Below, piece by piece: positions 26,371-63,751 of a stretch of 64,000 nucleotides of DNA. A model generated the notes under the pieces. That model was not told the origin of the DNA. It did no database searches and saw nothing but the letters and a program-made list of their open reading frames with translations. Each line of letters opens with the position of its first letter. Position 1 is the stretch's first letter. A program made the translations under genes and the position numbers. Origin of the DNA: Desulfobia sp. (GTDB lineage: Bacteria; Desulfobacterota; Desulfobulbia; Desulfobulbales; SURF-16); the NCBI GenBank assembly GCA_046497465.1, contig JAWOFO010000042.1, positions 64,651-128,650 of the forward strand, written 5' to 3'.

Positions 26371-27006
26371 TTAGGATGGCGGGACCTTTTTCTTTCTCCA
26401 GAGAGCGATCCCGGCCAGCCCGCCGCCCAGAAGGGTAACAGTTGCCGGCTCGGGGATGACATCGACCGAGGCGTTATTAACGGCATCGAAAGTCAGAGGG
26501 TCTCCCCGGGCATCGCCGAGTGCAATTACTGAAATATCCAGGGGGCTGGTTCCCAGGGCCAGGGCAGTAAAGGTCAGGGTGGCCAGGGTGAAGCTGGGAG
26601 CTTGGTTATTTATTAATATGTTGGGCTCATCGATTGAAATTTCATAGAAGTTGACAACATCATTTGTGCTGGCGTCGTAATCCCAGAAAATACCTTGGTC
26701 ATTAAAAGGTTCAGTATCAGCGAAATTCAATGAATTCGAAAAATCCACCTGGTCTCCTCGGTCCGGATCCCCAAAGCTGATACTGTCAAAATAAAGAATC
26801 AAGTCATCGTAATCCACATCCAGGTCAAAGGCGCTGAGGGAAGGCGCCACCCCGTCCCCGAGCCCGGAAATACTGAGGGCGGCATCTACGGTGCCGCCTT
26901 TTGGCACTTCCTGGAACAACGGATCTATACTGAGCATCAGGGCCTGTACCGGTAAGGCCCAGCAGCTTACTAGAACAAATATGAGGAGATTAAGATTTTT
27001 TTTCAT
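26371..27006 (-). CDS. cohesin-like secreted protein with C-terminal PEP-CTERM sorting signal
   Basis: 211 aa with signal peptide MKKNLNLLIFVLVSCWALPVQA. The beta-sandwich region follows a cohesin-like pattern (GGTVDAALSISGL...LSAFDLDVDYDDLILYFDSISFG...FTLATLTFTALALGTSPLDIS). The C-terminus VIPEPATVTLLGGGLAGIALWRKKK gives a PEP motif, a TM helix and a basic tail. The gene lies 36 nt downstream of the giant gene, with GGGAGGA before its ATG. Confidence 0.8.
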   Translation of the reverse strand: MKKNLNLLIFVLVSCWALPVQALMLSIDPLFQEVPKGGTVDAALSISGLGDGVAPSLSAFDLDVDYDDLILYFDSISFGDPDRGDQVDFSNSLNFADTEPFNDQGIFWDYDASTNDVVNFYEISIDEPNILINNQAPSFTLATLTFTALALGTSPLDISVIALGDARGDPLTFDAVNNASVDVIPEPATVTLLGGGLAGIALWRKKKVPPS

Positions 27007-27042: not shown

Positions 27043-30000
27043 TTAGAACGGGTCTCCGGGAATAATATCCGCCCGGCCCTGTGCCCCCGTACTGTCGGTT
27101 ACGGTCAGGGTCAGCAGGTTGATATCTTCAGGAATACAGGCCCCGCTCCAGATCATGACAAAATCATTACCCAGGTAGCTGATCCCCAGACTGGAATTTT
27201 CTATAAGCTGGACAATCTCCGGATCATCACCCAGACTGAAAGAGTAAGGTTCAGTACCGCCCTCTATATCAAAGCCGGTCTCAAAGTAACACCTGTTTAC
27301 CACCTGAGTCGGAGGGGAGAGGGTGAGACCCTCTTCGGCATTGAGGATAAACCGGTATTCCACAGCCCGGCTGACCTCGGAGCGCAGCATAAGGGTACAG
27401 GTCCCTCCCTCCGGGGTCCCGACAGAGGCAAAGCCGCCCGAACCCTCCGCCAGCTGGACCTGATCGGGATCGAAAAGAAAGGCCCTGACTGCCGAGGCGG
27501 TCTCGTCTATCACCACCCCGTCTTCCGTCTCATCAACGTCCAGGGCTACCGGGTCTCCAGTACAGACCCAGGCAAAAACGTCTTCATCTCCCTCCTGTTC
27601 CAGGTTTCCGTTTACCATCTCCCCCAGGTCAATCGGCCTTGGTGCCCCCTGTCCCGAGATGTCGAACTGGATTTCCGGACTCAGGGGATCGTTGCTTTCA
27701 ATCGTCACCGTACCCTGGTAAATCCCGGTCGATCCCGGCTGGAAATCAACACTTATGATCCGGTCATCCCCTTCGGGTTCGATCTGAAAAGGGGTAGGGG
27801 GGACAGTAACAGTGAATACGCTGTCACCGCTGTAGGAAATACTGTTTACCTGCAGGGTTGCCTCGCCGGTATTGCCGATAGAGACGCTCCCGGAGCCACC
27901 TGCACCACAGGGGACTTCTCCGAAATCCAGGGAAGAAGGGGTCAGAGATATGGAGGAGGTTATGCCGTTGCCGGAGAGGGAGCCGTTGAACACCGGGGTA
28001 TCAGGGTCGTTGGATGCAATGGCAACGCTTCCGTATACGGGATCGGTACTTGAAGGAGTAAAAGTTACTGTCAGGCTGCAGGTCCCGGACGGAGCAAGCG
28101 TCCCGGTACAGTCAGAAGCGGCAGTCTCGAATTCGGAGGCCCCGGCTAAGGAGATATCGGTGATCTCGAGGTCGGCATCGCCGCTGTTTTTGATTATCAT
28201 ATCCTGTTCCTGAGAAGTGCCAAGGGGTACGTCGATAAAGACCAGGTTTCCGCCGATAACCACTAGGTCCGGTTCCAGCGCCGCCAGGCCGTTGCCGGAG
28301 AGGGCAATAATGATCGAAGGATCATCCGGATCATTGGAGGTTATGCCAAGTTCGGCTGAGGCCGGGCCGGTCACCGTGGGAGAGAATACCGTGCTGATCG
28401 TACAGTCGCTTGCAGCCGGAAGAACCCCGGGACAGTTATCAAGGTGGTAAATGTCTGCCGAGCCCGAAGTCGAGATCCCGGTTATATCAAGATCTGCATT
28501 GCCGGTGTTTGACAGGGTAACGGGTTGATTTGCGGTATAGCCGATATTGATATCCCCGAAATCGACAGCCGCCGGTGCCACGGATATGTCAGGTTTCAGG
28601 AAAGAGATATCCCTGGTTGCGGATTCGCCCCGGGCATCTGTCACCCTTAAACGGAGCAGGGCGATATCCTGCGGTATACAGCCGTTGATCCGGAGCACTG
28701 CCTGGTCGTTGTTTTCGTACTCCACCTCAAAGCCTTCCGGGGGATAGTCCTGGTAAGGTGAACATATCACCGGCTCGGTTTGATAACAGCCACTCCAGCT
28801 GAACTGGTATGGTTTAAGCCCGCCGTATGCCTTGAAAGTTTTTTCACTTTCACAGAAGGGCAGTACCGCCTCCTCGGGACTGATAGCCAGAGGCCAGTAT
28901 TCGGCGGAACCTTGGTAAAAGATGTGGAGCATTCCGGAATAGCTCCGGCGGTTTTGCAGGGTCGGATCCGAGGGTTCCGGGGCATCGGCAACAGGATCGA
29001 TTATAAGCATGTCATCCCCTAGAAAAGGATTCAGGTCTCCGGCGCCGATAAAGACGCCGAATCCCGGTCTTGAAATCCCGGCTTTGGCTTGCGGACCTGT
29101 GAACAGGTAATCCAGGCCGTCTTCAAGGGCCGTTCCCGGATTATCGGTATAATCAATCTCCCCGGAGTACCACCGCCGGTTCTCCAGATGGATCAAATCT
29201 CCTCCCTCACTGTCTTCCCATAAGGGGGATTCACTGCCGTAGAGCACCCAGACGTGTCCCGGCAGATTTGCTCCGCCCCTGCCGGAAGGGGCTCCCACCA
29301 GTAAATCGTTAAAACCGTCATTGTTCAGATCTCCGGAAGACAGGGAGTAGCCGAATCTGCATATCGATCTTGAGCCGCTGATGAGTACGTCTTTTATGCC
29401 TTCGACGTTTACCAGGCCGTCAAGTTGGGTACTGTTTCCGTCGATCAGGTATACCCGTCCCACCCCGGTTTCATTTATCTCAACCCTGCTCTGGATCTCA
29501 GGGTCCTTGATCATGGAATGATACATCTCCAGTTCGAGTTTTGCAGAGGGCGCCCCGACAACTATCTCGCCTCTGCCGTCCCGGTTCAGATCAACTATGC
29601 CGGTAGAAGCTGCAAATCCCGTTCTCTCATCTTCGCTCCAGATCCTGGGGCCCTCGATGAGGACATCCTGATTTCCCTCAGAAAGCGGGCCGGCGTAGAG
29701 ATATCCCCGCAGCATTGAATCACCGTAAAAGATATAGGCTGCTCCCTGACGCAGAGACAGTTCAGCCCCGGCCGGGACTCTGCCATAGTCCGGTGCCCCT
29801 ATGAGCAGGTCGTCATGGCCGTCCCCGTTGATATCTTCCATTGCCAGTGATTTCCCCAGCCCGTCGCCTTTGTACTGCACGTATTCACCGGTCTGAAAGT
29901 CGATAATATCAGTCTGGTAGACATTCTGTCCCTCTATGACAGCGCGGTAGGGACGGAACAAGTATAAGTCGTCCGGGATCTTCACGTCTTTGGGCATGGA

Positions 30001-33000
30001 AACGTAACCGGGATGGAAGATGTAGGCCCGGGCCACCAGTTGATTTACGGAGTCAGGATCCACCGGATCAGTGGGTGCGGTAATTACCAGGTCACCGCCG
30101 AAGCCGTAGATGTTGCCGATTGCCACCTGGTAGCCCAGTTCCCGCTCATCGTCGCTGTAAAACATCACATCATAATTACCCTGGCCCACATTATAAGCTG
30201 ACTGCCATTCCTCCCTACCGTAAAAGAGATAGGCTTTTCCGGGCAGATGACCCGGGTAGTCTACCTGATTGATCTCTATATTCGGCCGGTGAAGACCGGA
30301 CTCGTCCTGGTCGGTTGTGCCGATAAGGAGATCATCAACACCGTCCCCGTTGATATCGCCCAGGGCCAGGGAGTTTCCGAGACGCCTGCTGTTGCCCCCG
30401 GTATGGATATCGCCGCTGTCCCCTGTGATCTTTACATCCCAGGCCGGGGTGACGGTGGAGAGATCAACAGTATCCACAACCCTGCTGCCGTAAAGCTCCC
30501 CGATTCCTTCCACAGGACCGAAGGCGATATAAACCGCCCCGATGGCATAACCCAGATTACGATACTCGGGCATCCCGATCACCAGGTCGTTTATACCGTC
30601 ACCATTGAGGTCACCTATGGCAGCGCTCCTCAGATAAGTGTACCGGTCTCCAAAGGCCAGCAAATCCTGGTCGTCGGCGCTGGTAAAACCCGCGGATTCA
30701 TAGGGAAGAATCCTGATTCCGTTCTGATCGCAGTTGTTGCTCTGACAGGGAAGATTCGCACCTACCTTCAGGGTTGCCCCGAAATCAGTACCATCGTAAG
30801 CCAGGCCGTCCTGGTGGAACTCCGGAATCTCGAAGGCGTACCAGTCATATCTGGTATGTTTTTTCACCCAGGTGTCCGCCGGCTGGATTTCGAAAAGCCG
30901 GTTGCCGTAAGAAAGAGTCAGGTCGCTGTCAGCCGCATAAGGGGTCAGATAGTTGCCCGATATATACAGGGTGTCCCCGGGATACATGGATGGATTTCTG
31001 AGGTTTAGGGTGGCATCCAGATCCGGACTGGGAGGTATAAAGACGGGAGGGCTTTCCCGGTAGTTGGCAGGATAGGCGGCGGACTCGTCCCTAACCCTAA
31101 TGGAAAGCCAGCCCGGCTTGTGTCCCCAGTAATATCCATATTTGGTGCAGGAATCAGTCCGTGGATTCCCGCAGTAATCCGGTGCTCCGTTCCAGAGGAG
31201 AAGAGGGAGGCCGGAGCGGGCACTGAACCCCCTGCCCTCGACGATCAGATCGTACCTGTCCCGCCAGCATCCAATCCAGATATCTTCCACTACATTATAT
31301 GTGCAGAACTCGTCCCAGTAAGTGGTGGGTTCCCAGTTCCAGTCTTCTACAATCGGGACCTCAATAACCTCGACCGGGAAATAGGGAGGATAATCGGTTC
31401 CCCATTCCAGGCATTCGTCATCGACCAGATTCTCGCATCTGGTCTTTGACGGATACTGGTAGTCCCCGCACTCCGCCTGAATATCGAACTCGGCCGTGCC
31501 GGTGAACAAGCCGGCATTAACGGTGTGGGTCTCGTGAACAGCGCCGGCATCTTCTATGGTCAGGAAGTCCGAGGGCTCGGTGGTTTCCAGGGTTGACGGC
31601 ACTCCCACATCCAGCATGGTAACGTGGATTTCATCTATATCCAGGAGATCAACGGCAAAGGCCACTACAAAGTCCCCCAGAACATCCTCGAGAAAGGACT
31701 CCAGATCCACTCCTGCTATTTGTTTTATGATGGAGAAGAGACCGAACGGATCAGGGATATCTATTGCCAGGTCTCCGTGTTCTATCAGTTCCGTGAAACC
31801 GGCATTGGTAAAGTTGGCGTAGAGACTTAATTCGTTGCTCGTATCAGTATAGAAGATATGGTTGCTGATCCCTTCAAAAGGCCCTGAAGCAGCGACCTTC
31901 CACTCACTGGGAAAGGTAGGGACTCCGGCCTGGAGGACGTCTGCCACCAGGTCTATTACCGAAGTGATGGCCTCGATTATTCCGTCAATAGCATCAACGG
32001 TTGCAATAAGCTCGGTAATAAAGGGGATGGCCGCGCAGCAGGGTACACAGCCGAAGAAGCAGGAGATCGAATTTCCGGCTAGAGACACGTACAGGATAAC
32101 CCTGGTTGAATCCAGGATTTCGTCTATTGTTTCAAAGGGGTCTGCTATGTCATTAAGAATGTCTACGACTTCACTGACATTACAGACGGCCTCACCGTCT
32201 GGAGAATGACTCAGTATTTCGTTTATCAGTTCGAATTTCTGCTTTATAAGTAAAAAGGCTTCACTCCCGAAGACGGCGTCGAGATTTGCCTTTACTTCAT
32301 CGCTGGGAATAGAGTCCACTCTGTCCCTTAAGGTTTCCACGAAATTCATGGTCCCGGCCATGTTTTCTTCCAGCAGGGCCCACTTCTCCGGAGGTATGTT
32401 CGGCTTTGTCAAGTGCTCCAGTTTAGCGAAGACTCTCTGCAGCTGGGTGACCAGCAGGTCCAACTGGTAGTCCACCTCGTTGCCTTTCAGGTCCGGAGTA
32501 GGATCCTGGGCGGGCATCACCTGAAAACCGAGGGAATTGGATATACTTTGTTCATCGTATACATATACCTGCAGACTCTCCTCGCTTTTCAGGAAGATGA
32601 AGGGGACCATGACCTTAAGGTAATTTTCCGTTGCCTCCAGCACTACTCCCTTACTACCGTATTCATCCCCCTGGAAATAGGCCTCCATTACCTGCCGGTC
32701 AGGAGTGAAGCCGGAGCCGGTAACGGTTATGATGGTCCCTGTCTGACCGGACGGCGGTGAAATATCATCCAGGAACAGGGCCGGTACCGGATTATAATTG
32801 ACGGCAAATTTAGCAGGCGGGCTCTGTACTCCGTTGATCAGCACAGAAACCTCAAAATCGTTTAAGCCGGCAGTGAGCTTTACTGATTTTTCAAAATAGC
32901 CGTTCTCATTGACTGTCTCTACAGTTTCACCGGTAGTAGTATTGCTGATAACAACTGTTCCGCCTGGTACTGAAACACCCTTAAGCGTAATGGTCTCGTT

Positions 33001-33240
33001 GTCTGTCACCTTTGGTGGAGGTGCCAGCAACGGCTTGCCCAACACGGTTATAACTGTGCTGTCTTCAGGGCTTGTCATGTTTTTGTTGTCGGTTACCACC
33101 AGTGAAAAATTAAAAACCCCCTGCTTCAAAGAAACAGAGGGTGTGATCACATCCTCCGGGTCAGGGGAACCCGACCAGGTATAGTTACTGATTGTGCCGT
33201 CCGGATCACGGGAAGAGCTGCCGTCAAGCTGGATATCCAT
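27043..33240 (-). CDS. giant secreted multidomain surface protein (PKD, IPT/TIG, unknown ~600-aa region, 7-blade FG-GAP propeller, 3 choice-of-anchor-D/ASH-like repeats, He_PIG-like and PPC-like modules); main uninterrupted ORF
   Basis: This is a 2065-codon ORF counted from its first in-frame ATG. Motifs read from the translation follow.
- PKD-like: DGSSSRDPDGTISNYTW.
- IPT/TIG-like: ISPPSGQTGTIITVTGSGFT (32704-32763).
- Seven Ca-binding FG-GAP blades between ~28990 and 30620: GDLNGDGINDLVIG, GDINGDGVDDLLIG, GFGGDLVITAP, EDINGDGHDDLLIGAP (29791-29838), VDLNRDGRGEIVVGAP (29548-29595), GDLNNDGFNDLLVGAP, GDLNPFLGDDMLII.
- Three ~100-aa repeats each ending ...SNDP...SGNG/SGQG (~27650-28595).
- Two G.(K/E)PY.FS...VTD..G modules.
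The true N-terminus lies upstream (see the next feature). Confidence 0.9.
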   Translation of the reverse strand: MDIQLDGSSSRDPDGTISNYTWSGSPDPEDVITPSVSLKQGVFNFSLVVTDNKNMTSPEDSTVITVLGKPLLAPPPKVTDNETITLKGVSVPGGTVVISNTTTGETVETVNENGYFEKSVKLTAGLNDFEVSVLINGVQSPPAKFAVNYNPVPALFLDDISPPSGQTGTIITVTGSGFTPDRQVMEAYFQGDEYGSKGVVLEATENYLKVMVPFIFLKSEESLQVYVYDEQSISNSLGFQVMPAQDPTPDLKGNEVDYQLDLLVTQLQRVFAKLEHLTKPNIPPEKWALLEENMAGTMNFVETLRDRVDSIPSDEVKANLDAVFGSEAFLLIKQKFELINEILSHSPDGEAVCNVSEVVDILNDIADPFETIDEILDSTRVILYVSLAGNSISCFFGCVPCCAAIPFITELIATVDAIDGIIEAITSVIDLVADVLQAGVPTFPSEWKVAASGPFEGISNHIFYTDTSNELSLYANFTNAGFTELIEHGDLAIDIPDPFGLFSIIKQIAGVDLESFLEDVLGDFVVAFAVDLLDIDEIHVTMLDVGVPSTLETTEPSDFLTIEDAGAVHETHTVNAGLFTGTAEFDIQAECGDYQYPSKTRCENLVDDECLEWGTDYPPYFPVEVIEVPIVEDWNWEPTTYWDEFCTYNVVEDIWIGCWRDRYDLIVEGRGFSARSGLPLLLWNGAPDYCGNPRTDSCTKYGYYWGHKPGWLSIRVRDESAAYPANYRESPPVFIPPSPDLDATLNLRNPSMYPGDTLYISGNYLTPYAADSDLTLSYGNRLFEIQPADTWVKKHTRYDWYAFEIPEFHQDGLAYDGTDFGATLKVGANLPCQSNNCDQNGIRILPYESAGFTSADDQDLLAFGDRYTYLRSAAIGDLNGDGINDLVIGMPEYRNLGYAIGAVYIAFGPVEGIGELYGSRVVDTVDLSTVTPAWDVKITGDSGDIHTGGNSRRLGNSLALGDINGDGVDDLLIGTTDQDESGLHRPNIEINQVDYPGHLPGKAYLFYGREEWQSAYNVGQGNYDVMFYSDDERELGYQVAIGNIYGFGGDLVITAPTDPVDPDSVNQLVARAYIFHPGYVSMPKDVKIPDDLYLFRPYRAVIEGQNVYQTDIIDFQTGEYVQYKGDGLGKSLAMEDINGDGHDDLLIGAPDYGRVPAGAELSLRQGAAYIFYGDSMLRGYLYAGPLSEGNQDVLIEGPRIWSEDERTGFAASTGIVDLNRDGRGEIVVGAPSAKLELEMYHSMIKDPEIQSRVEINETGVGRVYLIDGNSTQLDGLVNVEGIKDVLISGSRSICRFGYSLSSGDLNNDGFNDLLVGAPSGRGGANLPGHVWVLYGSESPLWEDSEGGDLIHLENRRWYSGEIDYTDNPGTALEDGLDYLFTGPQAKAGISRPGFGVFIGAGDLNPFLGDDMLIIDPVADAPEPSDPTLQNRRSYSGMLHIFYQGSAEYWPLAISPEEAVLPFCESEKTFKAYGGLKPYQFSWSGCYQTEPVICSPYQDYPPEGFEVEYENNDQAVLRINGCIPQDIALLRLRVTDARGESATRDISFLKPDISVAPAAVDFGDINIGYTANQPVTLSNTGNADLDITGISTSGSADIYHLDNCPGVLPAASDCTISTVFSPTVTGPASAELGITSNDPDDPSIIIALSGNGLAALEPDLVVIGGNLVFIDVPLGTSQEQDMIIKNSGDADLEITDISLAGASEFETAASDCTGTLAPSGTCSLTVTFTPSSTDPVYGSVAIASNDPDTPVFNGSLSGNGITSSISLTPSSLDFGEVPCGAGGSGSVSIGNTGEATLQVNSISYSGDSVFTVTVPPTPFQIEPEGDDRIISVDFQPGSTGIYQGTVTIESNDPLSPEIQFDISGQGAPRPIDLGEMVNGNLEQEGDEDVFAWVCTGDPVALDVDETEDGVVIDETASAVRAFLFDPDQVQLAEGSGGFASVGTPEGGTCTLMLRSEVSRAVEYRFILNAEEGLTLSPPTQVVNRCYFETGFDIEGGTEPYSFSLGDDPEIVQLIENSSLGISYLGNDFVMIWSGACIPEDINLLTLTVTDSTGAQGRADIIPGDPF

Positions 33241-35402: not shown

Positions 35403-35885
35403 TTACTTGTCCCGGTTGGTTTTCTTTGTAATTAACCAGTATGTTATTCCCAATGCTAAGACGACTGCAGCGGTACCGTATATATAAGGCGGTGTTGTTC
35501 TCTCAAAATCAAAAATAATTACTTTTCTGGCAATGGCCATAAGTGCGGTGGCGACAACCAGACGCACAGGTATAATATCGGTGCTAAGGTACATACTTAT
35601 ATTGATAAATATTTCAATCGCTATAAGGACCGCCAGAAAAGCGCCAAATGTCGCAAGTATGTCATTTATTTGTAAAAGCAGGTACGGCGGCTGGGTGAGG
35701 CGTTGATATAAAACATAGATGACATCTCCTATACCCCAGACAATAACGAGCACCATCAGTACGGCAAGGATTTTTATCACAATTCTTATGATCCTGTGCA
35801 GAAAACGAATGGTTGCATCTTCATGTTTCAAATGAAGATCATGGCCTGGTTCACGTTCGTATGTTGAGGGCTTGTCTGTTTTCAT
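35403..35885 (-). CDS. small four-TM membrane protein, PsiE-like
   Basis: 160 aa. A polar N-terminus is followed by four hydrophobic helices. The pattern LAVLIAIEIF...VVATALMAIARKVIIFD resembles the phosphate-starvation-inducible PsiE family. The assignment is tentative. Confidence 0.55.
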   Translation of the reverse strand: MKTDKPSTYEREPGHDLHLKHEDATIRFLHRIIRIVIKILAVLMVLVIVWGIGDVIYVLYQRLTQPPYLLLQINDILATFGAFLAVLIAIEIFINISMYLSTDIIPVRLVVATALMAIARKVIIFDFERTTPPYIYGTAAVVLALGITYWLITKKTNRDK

Positions 35886-35902
35886 AGTCGTTTCGTTTTT
35901 AA

Positions 35903-36052
35903 TTCAATTTTCCGGATTGATTTATCTGTATGATATAACGTGCAAATTTCTTAGTGAAGCAAGCCTTGAGAGCACTCAAGCTCGAAATTGTTCCTGAATA
36001 AACATACCAACCGTCTGAAATCATAATAGTTTTATCAAGTCGGAAAGTTGAG
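35903..36052. mobile_element. MITE-like nonautonomous element, copy 1 (150 bp)
   Basis: Its terminal inverted repeats are tcaattttccggattga... and ...tcaagtcggaaagttga. It is flanked by tttttaa on both sides (35896-35902 and 36054-36060). The arms are near-identical to copy 2 at 62817-62957. Confidence 0.6.
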
Positions 36053-36312
36053 TTTTTTAATATTTATCTTTATCTTTCCACTTATTTACGATACTATCAA
36101 AGGTGATATGGGAAGTAAATCTAAACTGGGCAGATTTACCGCCGGTTGACCTTCTGTTATATCCATTTAACTGCCAGGTTCCGTCCTGCTAGCTACCTCG
36201 GCATCCGTGATGTTGAGCGCTTTCTGTCAAACAGGCATAAAGTGTCATCTTTAACACAGAGCGTCAGGTTCTGAACACCCCTTTTTTCTGTTGCGAGGAC
36301 CCTGACAAACCT

Positions 36313-60865: not shown

Positions 60866-61654
60866 ATGAACCACCTCAAGCGTTATTGGCGGCTGGGTGT
60901 CCCCTCTTTTGTTCTGCCGGCTGAGGTTTCTGATAATGTGCTCTTTTTGGCAGACAAAGTCGATGATGTCCAGCTTCTTTTTTTTGAGTCTCCTGCCAGA
61001 AGCAGATTACCGCATCAGCTTGATATAGAACTGCTCAAAACCCTTGCCGTAGAGCACGACCTCAGTTATACAGTTCATCTGCCCCTGGACTTGAGGTTGA
61101 CCAGTCCCGCTGCTGTTGAAAGATCAGAGTCGGTCGAGGAGATCAGCCGGATTGTCGAAAAAGTCTCGGAGCTGTCGCCGCTCAGTTTTGATCTGCATCT
61201 GGATTATTACCATGAGAATGAGAAAGAAGAATGGCTTAGGGCTGTAGATTTTTCTTTGGCCCTTTTGTCCAGGGAACTTGGGGATTGGGCCTCGAGGATT
61301 GCTGTGGAAAATACTTATTACCCTTTTTATGAGGTACGTTCCCTGGTCCTTAGCCACGGTTTATCTCTCTGTCTTGATTTTGGTCATGCCCTGTATTACG
61401 GGGATGATATTGCCAGAATGATTGAAGATATCCCTCAGGCTGTCCATATCCATTATCATGGCGTGGAGGACAGGGATCATAGGGTCTTGACTGGCAGGCA
61501 GCGTGATTTAACAGTAAGAATAGGGCAGGGGATGCGGGCCTGCAATTATGATGGAGTCTTTACTCTGGAAGTCTATGATTTGGCGGCAGTGGAAAAGTCT
61601 TTGCTTGAATTGTCAGTGGCTTGGGAGATGGATAGTGGGAAATGGAAGGTATAA
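60866..61654 (+). CDS. xylose-isomerase-like TIM-barrel (AP endonuclease 2 family) protein, CbiR-like candidate cobamide-remodelling phosphodiesterase
   Basis: About 262 aa from the ATG at 60866. It has a TIM-barrel pattern with metal-ligand-like positions (VHLP, DLHLD, AVEN, DFGHA, HYHG). It sits immediately upstream of, and overlaps, cobT. The functional call rests on family resemblance plus context only. Confidence 0.55.
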   Translation: MNHLKRYWRLGVPSFVLPAEVSDNVLFLADKVDDVQLLFFESPARSRLPHQLDIELLKTLAVEHDLSYTVHLPLDLRLTSPAAVERSESVEEISRIVEKVSELSPLSFDLHLDYYHENEKEEWLRAVDFSLALLSRELGDWASRIAVENTYYPFYEVRSLVLSHGLSLCLDFGHALYYGDDIARMIEDIPQAVHIHYHGVEDRDHRVLTGRQRDLTVRIGQGMRACNYDGVFTLEVYDLAAVEKSLLELSVAWEMDSGKWKV

Positions 61655-62748
61655 CGATTTTGAGAGATAATATGTTTTCCAGACAGGACCTGAATGATCT
61701 GTTGGCCTGGATAGAGCCGGTTGATCAAGAAATCATGCGAGAGGCCGCCAGGCGGCTGGATAACAAGACCAAGCCTCCGGGCAGTCTGGGGATGCTTGAG
61801 GAGCTGGCCTGCCGTATGTGCGGAGTACAACGCAGTCTTAGCCCTTGCGCCGCCGGTAAAGTTATTCTGATCTTTGTCGGAGATCATGGGGTGACCAGTA
61901 ATGGTGTCAGTTGTATACCAAAGGAAGTCACCAGGCAGATGGTTTATAATTTTTTGAACGGTGGGGCTGGAGTAAATGTTCTGGCCAGGCATGTAGGTGC
62001 TGAAGTTCGGGTTGTTGATGTTGGAGTGGATGGAGATTTTGAGGTCGGCGGCCTGATCAGGGCAAAAGTGAAAAGGGGAACTGAAAATCTGGCTCTGGGC
62101 CCGGCTATGACCGTTAAAGAGACTCTGGCTGCTGTTGGGGTCGGGGTGAAGACAGCCGGGCAGGCTATCATAGATGGAGCTGATATTATAGGTACAGGGG
62201 ATATGGGCATAGGGAATACTACTCCCTCGGCGGCCCTTTTTTCGGCCCTGCTTGCCGCTAGTCCGGAGTCGGTAACCGGTCGGGGGGCAGGTTTGAATGA
62301 AAACGGCCTGGCCCAAAAAATTACCGTCGTCAGAAAAGGTTTGGAGGTCAACAGCTCTCTTATCAGCCAAGGTCCTCTGGAAGCCTTGGCAGCAGTTGGC
62401 GGTTTTGAGATCGCCGCTATCTGCGGAGTAGTTTTGGAATGCGCCCGGCAGAAAGTTCCGGTGGTAGTGGACGGCTTTATTTCCAGTGCCGGAGCCCTGA
62501 TCGCCTTAAAGATGAAAAGAGAGGTGAAAGATTACTGTTTTTTCAGTCATTGTTCAGCAGAGCAGGGTCACCGGATTTTTCTGGAGAAGATGGGGATAAA
62601 ACCGATTTTAGATCTTGATATGCGTCTCGGTGAAGGCACCGGTGCAGCCCTGGCCATGGGCATAATTGAAGCCGGAATAAAGATACTTATAGAGATGGCG
62701 ACTTTTGAGGAGGCCGGGATAAACCTTGGAAGTGAGATAAAAGTATAA
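61642..62748 (+). CDS. cobT: nicotinate-nucleotide--dimethylbenzimidazole phosphoribosyltransferase
   Basis: 368 aa. KTKPPGSLGMLEELA, GDHGV, GDMGIGNTTPSAA and MRLGEGTGAALA are the CobT hallmarks. Confidence 0.9.
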   Translation: MEGITILRDNMFSRQDLNDLLAWIEPVDQEIMREAARRLDNKTKPPGSLGMLEELACRMCGVQRSLSPCAAGKVILIFVGDHGVTSNGVSCIPKEVTRQMVYNFLNGGAGVNVLARHVGAEVRVVDVGVDGDFEVGGLIRAKVKRGTENLALGPAMTVKETLAAVGVGVKTAGQAIIDGADIIGTGDMGIGNTTPSAALFSALLAASPESVTGRGAGLNENGLAQKITVVRKGLEVNSSLISQGPLEALAAVGGFEIAAICGVVLECARQKVPVVVDGFISSAGALIALKMKREVKDYCFFSHCSAEQGHRIFLEKMGIKPILDLDMRLGEGTGAALAMGIIEAGIKILIEMATFEEAGINLGSEIKV

Positions 62749-62816
62749 AGATTAAAATCAGAGATCAATGGACTACTCGATCATCTACATTACCATAATA
62801 AACTGAAAGCTAAGAA

Positions 62817-62957
62817 TTCAACTTTCCGGATTGATCTATCTGGTATGATATAACGTGCAAATTTAGGGGTGCTTGACGGTTGGTATGTTTATTCAGGAAC
62901 ATTGTGCAGTGTCTGTTATCTGAAATCATAATAGTTCTCTCAAGTCGGAAAGTTGAG
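62817..62957. mobile_element. MITE-like nonautonomous element, copy 2 (141 bp), inserted between cobT and cobS
   Basis: Same arms as copy 1, with terminal inverted repeats tcaactttccggattga / tcaagtcggaaagttga (15/17). It is flanked by ctaag on both sides (62810-62814 and 62958-62962). The internal 27-nt core (62875-62901) is the exact reverse complement of the copy-1 core (35989-36015). Confidence 0.6.
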
Positions 62958-62983
62958 CTAAGGAAAAATTCGGTGAAAAGTTA

Positions 62984-63751
62984 ATGAGTAATCCCTTACG
63001 GCACATGGCCCTGGCCATTTCGTTTTTAACTATAAGCCCTCTGCCTGTTGATGAGGTATCTCCTGAAGATATTAGGCGAAGCAGTGTATTTTTCCCGCTT
63101 GCCGGCTGGCTGATCGGGGGGATAATGGCTTTTTGTGCCCTGGGCCTGGCTGGGGCAGGGGTAAACCCTCTTCTGGGAGGAGCGGTATTGATCTCGATCC
63201 AGGCCTGGTTTACCCGTGGTCTTCATCTTGACGGGGTCGCAGATTTGTGTGACGGCCTTGGTGGGGGCCGTGATTCGGAAGAGCGTCTGGCCATTATGAA
63301 GGATTCGGCAACCGGGGCTTTCGGGGTAACGGGATTGGTTTTAACTCTTGTTCTCAAGGTGGCGGGAGTGGCTGTAATGCTGGAGAAGGAGTTGTTTTTA
63401 TTTATTGCTTTTATCCCGGCTGCTGCCCGCTGGGCTATCATTGTCCTGTGCTGGTGCTCTGTTTATCCCCGTAAAGGAGGAACCGGCCATACTTTTGTAG
63501 GCCGGATTACAGGCAAGGAGGTCCTGCTCGGCTTTCTCTGGCTGCTGCCCTTTTTTATACTGGCGGAGTGTTTACAGTTTTATGCCTTGTTAGATGTTCT
63601 GGCAGTATTGGTCTGCACGTTGCTTCCCGCCTGTTATTTAAGAGTCAGGGGACGTAAACTGTTGGGTGGGGTAACCGGGGACCTTCTCGGGGCTTCCTGT
63701 GAGTTTGGCGAAGTCCTGTCTTTTGCTGCGGCCCCTGTTTTATTGATATAA
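62984..63751 (+). CDS. cobS: adenosylcobinamide-GDP ribazoletransferase (cobalamin synthase)
   Basis: 255-aa polytopic membrane protein. The blocks FLTISPLP, TRGLHLDGVADLCDGL and GGVTGDLLGA are the CobS signature. Confidence 0.9.
   Translation: MSNPLRHMALAISFLTISPLPVDEVSPEDIRRSSVFFPLAGWLIGGIMAFCALGLAGAGVNPLLGGAVLISIQAWFTRGLHLDGVADLCDGLGGGRDSEERLAIMKDSATGAFGVTGLVLTLVLKVAGVAVMLEKELFLFIAFIPAAARWAIIVLCWCSVYPRKGGTGHTFVGRITGKEVLLGFLWLLPFFILAECLQFYALLDVLAVLVCTLLPACYLRVRGRKLLGGVTGDLLGASCEFGEVLSFAAAPVLLI

Follow-up and report, generated by a model that had tools for sequence, protein, structure and literature searches.

What are the two short, closely similar units that sit between genes in this DNA, and how did they come to be there? 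The window, by which I mean the whole 64-kb stretch that was analysed, is ordinary chromosome of a sulfur-cycling member of the Desulfobulbales: it carries genes for ATP sulfurylase and NADH dehydrogenase subunits, radA, a rimP-infB-pnp cluster and cobalamin genes, and the closest named relatives of its CobS belong to the Desulfurivibrionaceae (69% identity). A preliminary description had placed two copies of a repeat at 35903-36052 and 62817-62957 and had read them as a nonautonomous, MITE-like element of a novel kind. The coordinates are correct, and both units are very probably MITEs, namely internally deleted, non-coding derivatives of an insertion sequence of the ISPepr1 subgroup of the IS4 family. 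The units and their arms lie as follows.

35903-36052, no strand assigned: copy 1 of the putative MITE, 150 bp, in the divergent intergenic region between psiE and mpl
62817-62957, no strand assigned: copy 2 of the putative MITE, 141 bp, within the 235-bp spacer between cobT and cobS
35903-35949, minus strand: left arm of copy 1, 47 bp, of the right-end (IRR) type of the likely parent insertion sequence
62817-62864, minus strand: left arm of copy 2, 48 bp, of the right-end type
36014-36052, minus strand: right arm of copy 1, 39 bp, with the inward tip CTCAACTTTCCGACTTGA
62919-62957, minus strand: right arm of copy 2, 39 bp, with a tip equal to the left-end tips of insertion sequences

Both arms are in direct orientation between the copies, and they are indeed nearly identical, as had been claimed: the left arms agree at ~94% of positions with a single 1-nt indel and the right arms at 37 of 39. 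The terminal inverted repeats are imperfect but real. With at most one mismatch, the 17-mer TCAACTTTCCGRMTTGA is found at the four element ends and nowhere else in the window; if up to three mismatches are admitted, the count rises to 6, where chance predicts 0.76. A repeat search recovers inverted arms of 21 nt with 81% complementarity in copy 1 and of 32 nt with 75% complementarity in copy 2. Folding, which the preliminary description had proposed as a check, pairs the inverted tips on both strands, with energies of -28.5 to -39.5 kcal/mol (z -2.1 to -4.2 against shuffled sequences).

The units do not appear to encode anything. Short ORFs of 39-41 aa run across the copies, but they read the arms in different frames and are not conserved, so they are not conserved coding sequence. 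An exact look-up of the 41-aa ORF that spans copy 1 found no such gene on record, and the concatenated six-frame stop-free peptides of both copies had no match at E <= 10 among 5.8 billion proteins. A tblastn search found no transposase in the 64-kb window, which bears out the earlier statement to that effect. The window contains the only two known copies of this exact subfamily, and a metagenome scan with a 21-mer of the left arm returned one match, an unrelated AT-rich contig without the tip sequence.

Flanking duplications are the second mark of a transposed element, and here they were compared in register, that is, as the 7 bp that directly abut the tips.

35896-35902, no strand assigned: left duplication of copy 1, TTTTTAA
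36053-36059, no strand assigned: right duplication of copy 1, TTTTTTA, 6/7 identical to 35896-35902
62810-62816, no strand assigned: left duplication of copy 2, CTAAGAA
62958-62964, no strand assigned: right duplication of copy 2, CTAAGGA, 6/7 identical to 62810-62816

Neither duplication is exact, yet at random 150-bp intervals of the window a match of at least 6/7 arises with a chance of only 0.0015, for each copy. The earlier claim that tttttaa brackets copy 1 on both sides is right if an offset of 1 nt is allowed, since an exact TTTTTAA lies at 36054-36060, one base beyond the in-register right flank; in register the agreement is 6/7. Similarly, the ctaag reported on both sides of copy 2 belongs to a real duplication but is just the first 5 bp of a 7-bp repeat.

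The parent of the units was sought by scanning one genome per species with a degenerate 17-mer of the tip, followed by a search for an inverted partner tip in the fetched loci. About 100 of the at least 109 stretches listed were chance single matches, but four matches fell in a single Desulfobulbaceae MAG, MAG127. The first full-length elements to emerge, of 1547 and 1549 bp, are in a Desulfatiglandales MAG and a Desulfuromusa MAG, and elements of 1547-1549 bp are now represented by L027, L095, L117-L132 and L138-L142, from other Desulfobacterota. Their ends are the tips of the window elements (YTCAACTTTCCG...), and at either end the 21 copies that follow the first two depart from CTCAACTTTCCG by two mismatches at most. 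Each full-length element contains a single ORF of 461 aa, a transposase with the Pfam domains DDE_5 and DDE_Tnp_1 that scores 553-556 bits against the NCBIfam model NF049925, 'IS4 family transposase' (cut-off 250), and that carries the YREK motif YGKRWDIEVFFKMMK (Y-x2-R-x3-E-x6-K) at residue 330. Homologues of this transposase number 4277 at E <= 1e-40 and lie mostly on contigs of ~1.5 kb, as is expected of a repeat.

Where the assembly can be trusted, the full-length elements are flanked by duplications of the same length. An exact 7-bp duplication, ATATTTA, surrounds L139-L142, whose contigs reach 29.8 kb; another, CTGTAAT, surrounds L129, and TTTTAAT/TTTTGAT (6/7) flanks L127 on a 425-kb contig. 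Several full-length copies have no flanking duplication, and many short metagenome contigs share one flank and not the other. Such contigs are evidently chimeric across copies, and chimeric short-read assembly over repeats probably accounts for the missing duplications, including that of one sister MITE described below.

These elements fit a described group. Within the IS4 family, De Palmenaer, Siguier and Mahillon (2008; PMC2266710, Table 1) recognise an ISPepr1 subgroup by a length of 1500-1600 bp, by ends of the form YT-AA-YTT---A, by a complete YREK motif, by direct repeats of 7-8 bp and by AT-rich targets. The right tip CTCAACTTTCCGA, the same in both copies, agrees with every specified position of that consensus, and the left tip TTCAA(C/T)TTTCCGG agrees with all but the final A. 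Length and a DDE transposase with a full YREK are found in the tip-sharing elements outside the window. The 7-bp duplications (6/7 in the window, 7/7 at three sister MITEs and 7/7 at L129 and L139-L142) fall within the 7-8 bp of the subgroup, and the duplicated sequences of window units, sister MITEs and full-length elements (TTTTTAA, CTAAGAA, CCTGTAA, TATGTAA, ATATTTA, CTGTAAT and TTTTAAT) are AT-rich, in keeping with its target preference. A tblastn search places homologues of the transposase, ~41-47% identical to it, on plasmids of Tetragenococcus, Pediococcus, Enterococcus and others. Given that ISTeha8 of Tetragenococcus halophilus is a registered member of the ISPepr1 subgroup (PMC10269466), these Lactobacillales homologues are compatible with clustering there, without being proof of it. 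The parent thus fits the ISPepr1 subgroup of the IS4 family by its tips, size, duplications, targets and YREK motif, and the earlier view that the repeat belongs to a novel or unrecognised family has to be given up. The window elements agree with the subgroup in tip consensus, in 7-bp duplications and in AT-rich targets, but differ from it in their length of 141-150 bp, in the lack of a transposase and in their rearranged centres.

How far do the arms themselves resemble the ends of such a parent? The left arm aligns without gaps over ~48 nt to the right ends of five insertion sequences. In copy 1 it is identical to the right end of L095 at 34 of 50 positions, and its tip matches a Desulfocapsaceae element (L078) at 21 of 22. 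In the insertion sequences the aligned stretch holds the last codons of the transposase and its stop codon; in the window elements it is a decayed transposase 3' end that has lost the stop codon. At the other side, the right tip of copy 1, CTCAACTTTCCGACTTGA, is identical at 18 of 18 positions to the left end (IRL) of L095, and the tip is likewise identical to most other left ends. Past these 18 nt the similarity of the right arm to insertion-sequence ends is not diagnostic, and a firm assignment of the whole arm to a left end, as against a right end, was therefore rejected. As judged from these alignments, the unit consists of two insertion-sequence ends over a short centre, the usual make-up of a MITE.

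Short tip patterns readily pick up coding sequence. In two Flavobacterium genomes a stretch of 22 nt (L057, 7027-7048, and L079, 194-215) equals the left tip of copy 1, but it lies inside a conserved coding gene (...VNQSGKLKT...) and was set aside as coincidence, not an element.

The full-length elements also have a subterminal motif in common, TGAAA(T/A)AAT or TTGAAAAT, whose spacing differs between the two ends: it stands ~48-58 nt from the left tip (L095, L117, L127, L137 and L139) and ~28-35 nt from the right tip (L078, L095, L117, L138 and L139). Both arms of the window MITEs contain TATGAT(A/T)T at the spacing typical of a right end. The motif may be a candidate site for the transposase or for a host factor. 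Among the elements found, none of full length has subterminal sequence that matches the window units, and none is from the same species; an autonomous partner would be a 1.55-kb element whose right end starts TTCAACTTTCCGGATTGATYTATCTG.

Taken together, the units are short and without a transposase, their tips are those of an autonomous element, and each has its own duplication of the length made by the parent. The earlier reading as a nonautonomous, MITE-like element, which had been based on small size, inverted ends, own duplications and the absence of a transposase from the window, is thereby upheld, and the units are non-coding as well. The DDE transposases of the IS4 family, such as those of Tn5 and Tn10, act by cut-and-paste with staggered cuts at the target. 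By analogy, a full-length copy at another place in the genome, present or former, would provide in trans a transposase that binds both tips, and the element would be excised by cut-and-paste; insertion would then take place at 7-bp staggered cuts in AT-rich intergenic DNA, and repair of these cuts would leave the 7-bp duplications.

The same arms could be had without any movement of a miniature unit, if each copy had inserted as a 1.55-kb element and lost its interior later, in situ. Indeed, insertion-sequence ends are the source of both tips and of the left arm, only the two copies are known, and their centres differ. However, independent deletions would not give equal arm boundaries (47 and 48 bp on the left, 39 bp on the right), nor would they leave one and the same core of 27 bp in both copies; none of the insertion sequences fetched contains this core. 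Furthermore, sister elements have multiplied as miniature units. A 214-bp MITE with the same tips is present in at least four near-identical copies (L014, L091, L096 and L109) in the Desulfobulbaceae genome MAG127 (JAHLLM01), three of them with exact 7-bp duplications (CCTGTAA, TTTTTAA and TATGTAA) and one, L091, without. I therefore regard two separate wrecks of full-length insertions as very unlikely. The lack of any duplication pattern elsewhere, which the preliminary description had named as a point that would count against a mobile element, is not what is seen: the same tips with exact 7-bp duplications recur in other Desulfobulbales genomes.

A further MITE with these tips, of 164 bp, is found in a Desulfurivibrionaceae MAG (L106). 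The 214-bp and 164-bp MITEs are like the window elements in that the terminal 12-17 bp are identical, in that they are intergenic and fold into hairpins, and in 7-bp duplications that usually end in AA; past the tips their interiors are unrelated to those of the window elements. On this comparison the three are separate subfamilies, which presumably arose by separate deletion events. The exact duplications in MAG127 all end in TAA, and the 214-bp MITE has a second long internal inverted repeat, TTGTAGGTTGGGTTAA / TTAACCCAACCTACAA.

If the ends of the window units are well explained by internal deletion of a parent, the centres are not. They have in common an exact 27-mer, overlooked in the preliminary description, which lies on opposite strands in the two copies.

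35989-36015, minus strand: 27-bp core GACGGTTGGTATGTTTATTCAGGAACA in copy 1
62875-62901, plus strand: 27-bp core GACGGTTGGTATGTTTATTCAGGAACA in copy 2, inverted relative to the arms as compared with copy 1

The rest of the centres can hardly be aligned between the copies. An exact 27-mer on opposite strands relative to identical arms would suit an invertible DNA switch, in which a site-specific recombinase flips the core or the whole centre and the two copies are caught in opposite states. A switch of this kind would be bracketed by inverted repeats, and neither copy has any on the two sides of its core. The surrounding sequences also differ between the copies, such that flipping one centre would not simply yield the other. 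Moreover, the orientation of the core is uniform at each locus in all of the independent assemblies (L110, L112, L113, L114, L134 and L135), and the window proteins that were scanned against Pfam, which are part of the total, contain no recombinase match. The missing repeats, the single orientation at each locus and the absence of the core from the fetched insertion sequences leave a recombinase switch with a very low probability.

The inverted core is a feature that a simple internal-deletion origin of the MITEs does not predict. It is possible that it results from alternative deletions of a longer palindromic ancestor, or from a rearrangement during hairpin-mediated transposition or repair. 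The core could be a candidate binding site for a protein or for the transposase, or a cassette that is exchanged or flipped by the hairpin-processing step of IS4-type transposition. That the core, a module which can sit in either orientation, is a functional unit rather than neutral debris, and that the host has co-opted the element besides, I consider unlikely. A scan of viral sequences with a 26-mer of the core gave zero matches. The one lead to its origin is a local alignment of the core together with the right arm against the left subterminal region of L095 (z = 4.6), in low-complexity AT-rich sequence and as one of 48 comparisons. A weak, in-frame resemblance of 'VYSGT', read from the core, to transposase C-termini of the form '...VYSTS*' was dropped, being unsupported by any of 120 homologues.

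The part of the centre that is peculiar to copy 1 (35951-35988) holds a small palindrome, CCTTGAGAGCACTCAAG (CTTGAGAG..CTCAAG). Its half-sites are similar to the more internal portion of the terminal repeat: CTTGAGAG, when reverse-complemented, gives the sequence at 62937-62944, within the right arm of copy 2. The palindrome may be the trace of a rearranged or nested end.

The genes around the two MITEs show where the insertions came to rest.

35403-35885, minus strand: psiE, with its start codon at 35885 and the left tip of copy 1 lying 17 bp upstream of that codon
other flank of copy 1, plus strand: gene for an mpl-type Mur ligase
61642-62748: cobT, on the left of the spacer that holds copy 2
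62984-63751: cobS, beyond copy 2

Could the units instead be a structured non-coding RNA or a common regulatory leader, with the inverted ends as the stem of the RNA? Both strands do fold better than shuffled sequence, copy 1 abuts the start codon of psiE, and copy 2 lies inside an operon transcript. But Rfam gives no match on the elements, either at the gathering threshold or at E <= 1, and promoter-like and terminator-like sites within them occur at chance level. A core turned round from one copy to the other is not something that an RNA gene would tolerate, and the tips are transposon ends with target duplications. Finally, psiE and mpl are unrelated to cobT and cobS, and the orientation of the element relative to its neighbours differs between the loci. 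With neighbours as unrelated as these, the arms do not represent the leaders of paralogous genes either, an alternative that the preliminary description had raised. An RNA or leader is in my estimation extremely unlikely. A promoter borne by the element was rejected too: the only sigma-70-like sites, at 9/12, occur at chance frequency and are not common to the copies.

The MITE insertions look old and fixed: the arms are ~5% diverged, each duplication has one mismatch, and all available assemblies of the species carry them. Three other assemblies of the same species are 99.0-100% identical to the window. Of these, GCA_041686435.1 has both loci, with the elements at the same sites; the copy 2 locus alone was recovered from GCA_051748965.1 and the copy 1 locus alone from GCA_964425565.1. 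Copy 2 is present in L110 and L112, and copy 1 occupies its site in three other assemblies or contigs of the species. In every available same-species assembly the recovered loci are occupied, with no polymorphic or precisely empty site among them. Short-read Logan contigs of two samples, SRR31818007 and SRR31818008, likewise cover the loci and at each of them stop within the MITE: 62883 is the first window position of L113 and L114, and 35938 the last of L136. At these break points the sequence common to copies 1 and 2 is shorter than the k-mer, assumed to be ~31, and so too short to cause the break, which hints at further copies or strain variants.

The cobT-cobS junction offers the closest view of what an insertion has changed. 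The gene order Lactamase_B, AP endonuclease, cobT, cobS, HSP20 is kept in the nearest other species, and of the relatives L115 has an 8-nt overlap of cobT with cobS while in L116 the two genes abut, as against the 235-bp spacer here; at just ~75% DNA identity, these relatives are too distant to supply a precise empty site. The MITE and one duplication make up 148 bp of the spacer. The N-terminus of cobS, MSNPLRH, is intact. With copy 2 in between, cobS is probably no longer translationally coupled to cobT, and the element could serve to uncouple the two genes. The cobT-cobS transcript probably carries a hairpin of -39.5 kcal/mol that is not followed by a U-tract. At the other locus, to judge by its position, copy 1 must belong to the promoter or the 5' leader of psiE, and could supply either of these 17 bp upstream of the start codon. 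The leftover ~87 bp of AT-rich cobT-cobS spacer (62749-62816 and 62958-62983) has no counterpart in L115 or L116 and could be the remnant of an older insertion.

Away from both loci, a 2065-aa ORF (27043-33240, minus strand) with FG-GAP, ASH/HYDIN-type Ig, PKD and TIG domains adjoins the gene of a small PEP-CTERM protein (26371-27006, minus strand), in a region of ~55% G+C within a window that has ~47% elsewhere.

What do the two MITEs mean beyond this window? Their value is mainly for annotation, in that a parent family can be named for a repeat that would otherwise be left as 'unknown intergenic'. In the sulfur-cycling Desulfobulbales, several MITE subfamilies have arisen separately from insertion sequences of the ISPepr1 type, and such repeats may add to the fragmentation of genome assemblies in this order. 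My search of the literature found no description of MITEs in Desulfobulbaceae. Locally, one MITE occupies the junction at which relatives couple cobT and cobS in translation, and the other lies directly against the start codon of psiE; neither effect would change the understanding of such elements, and the phenomenon is well known. The notable points are the inverted core and the two gene-proximal positions only. The subfamily adds to a known kind, a mobile-DNA relic of an ordinary sort in which the inverted core is the odd detail.

Two known systems place the window MITEs. The ERIC/IRU and REP/BIME repeats of enterobacteria are imperfect palindromes of ~130 bp that lie in intergenic and intra-operon positions and are co-transcribed with their neighbours. 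The window units are likewise imperfect palindromes in intergenic and intra-operon positions. A parent insertion sequence with matching ends is not known for ERIC/IRU or REP/BIME, whereas the window MITEs can be assigned to a parent family, with which their duplications agree. The nearer comparison is with MIC231 of Bacillus cereus, a MITE or mobile insertion cassette derived from IS231, itself an IS4-family element. Elements of the MIC231 type and the window units have in common non-autonomous IS4-family ends, probable mobilisation in trans, intergenic location and duplications of the parental length. The window unit differs in its parent subgroup and in its host clade, the Desulfobulbales, in having no passenger gene, and in carrying a 27-bp core that is found in both orientations.
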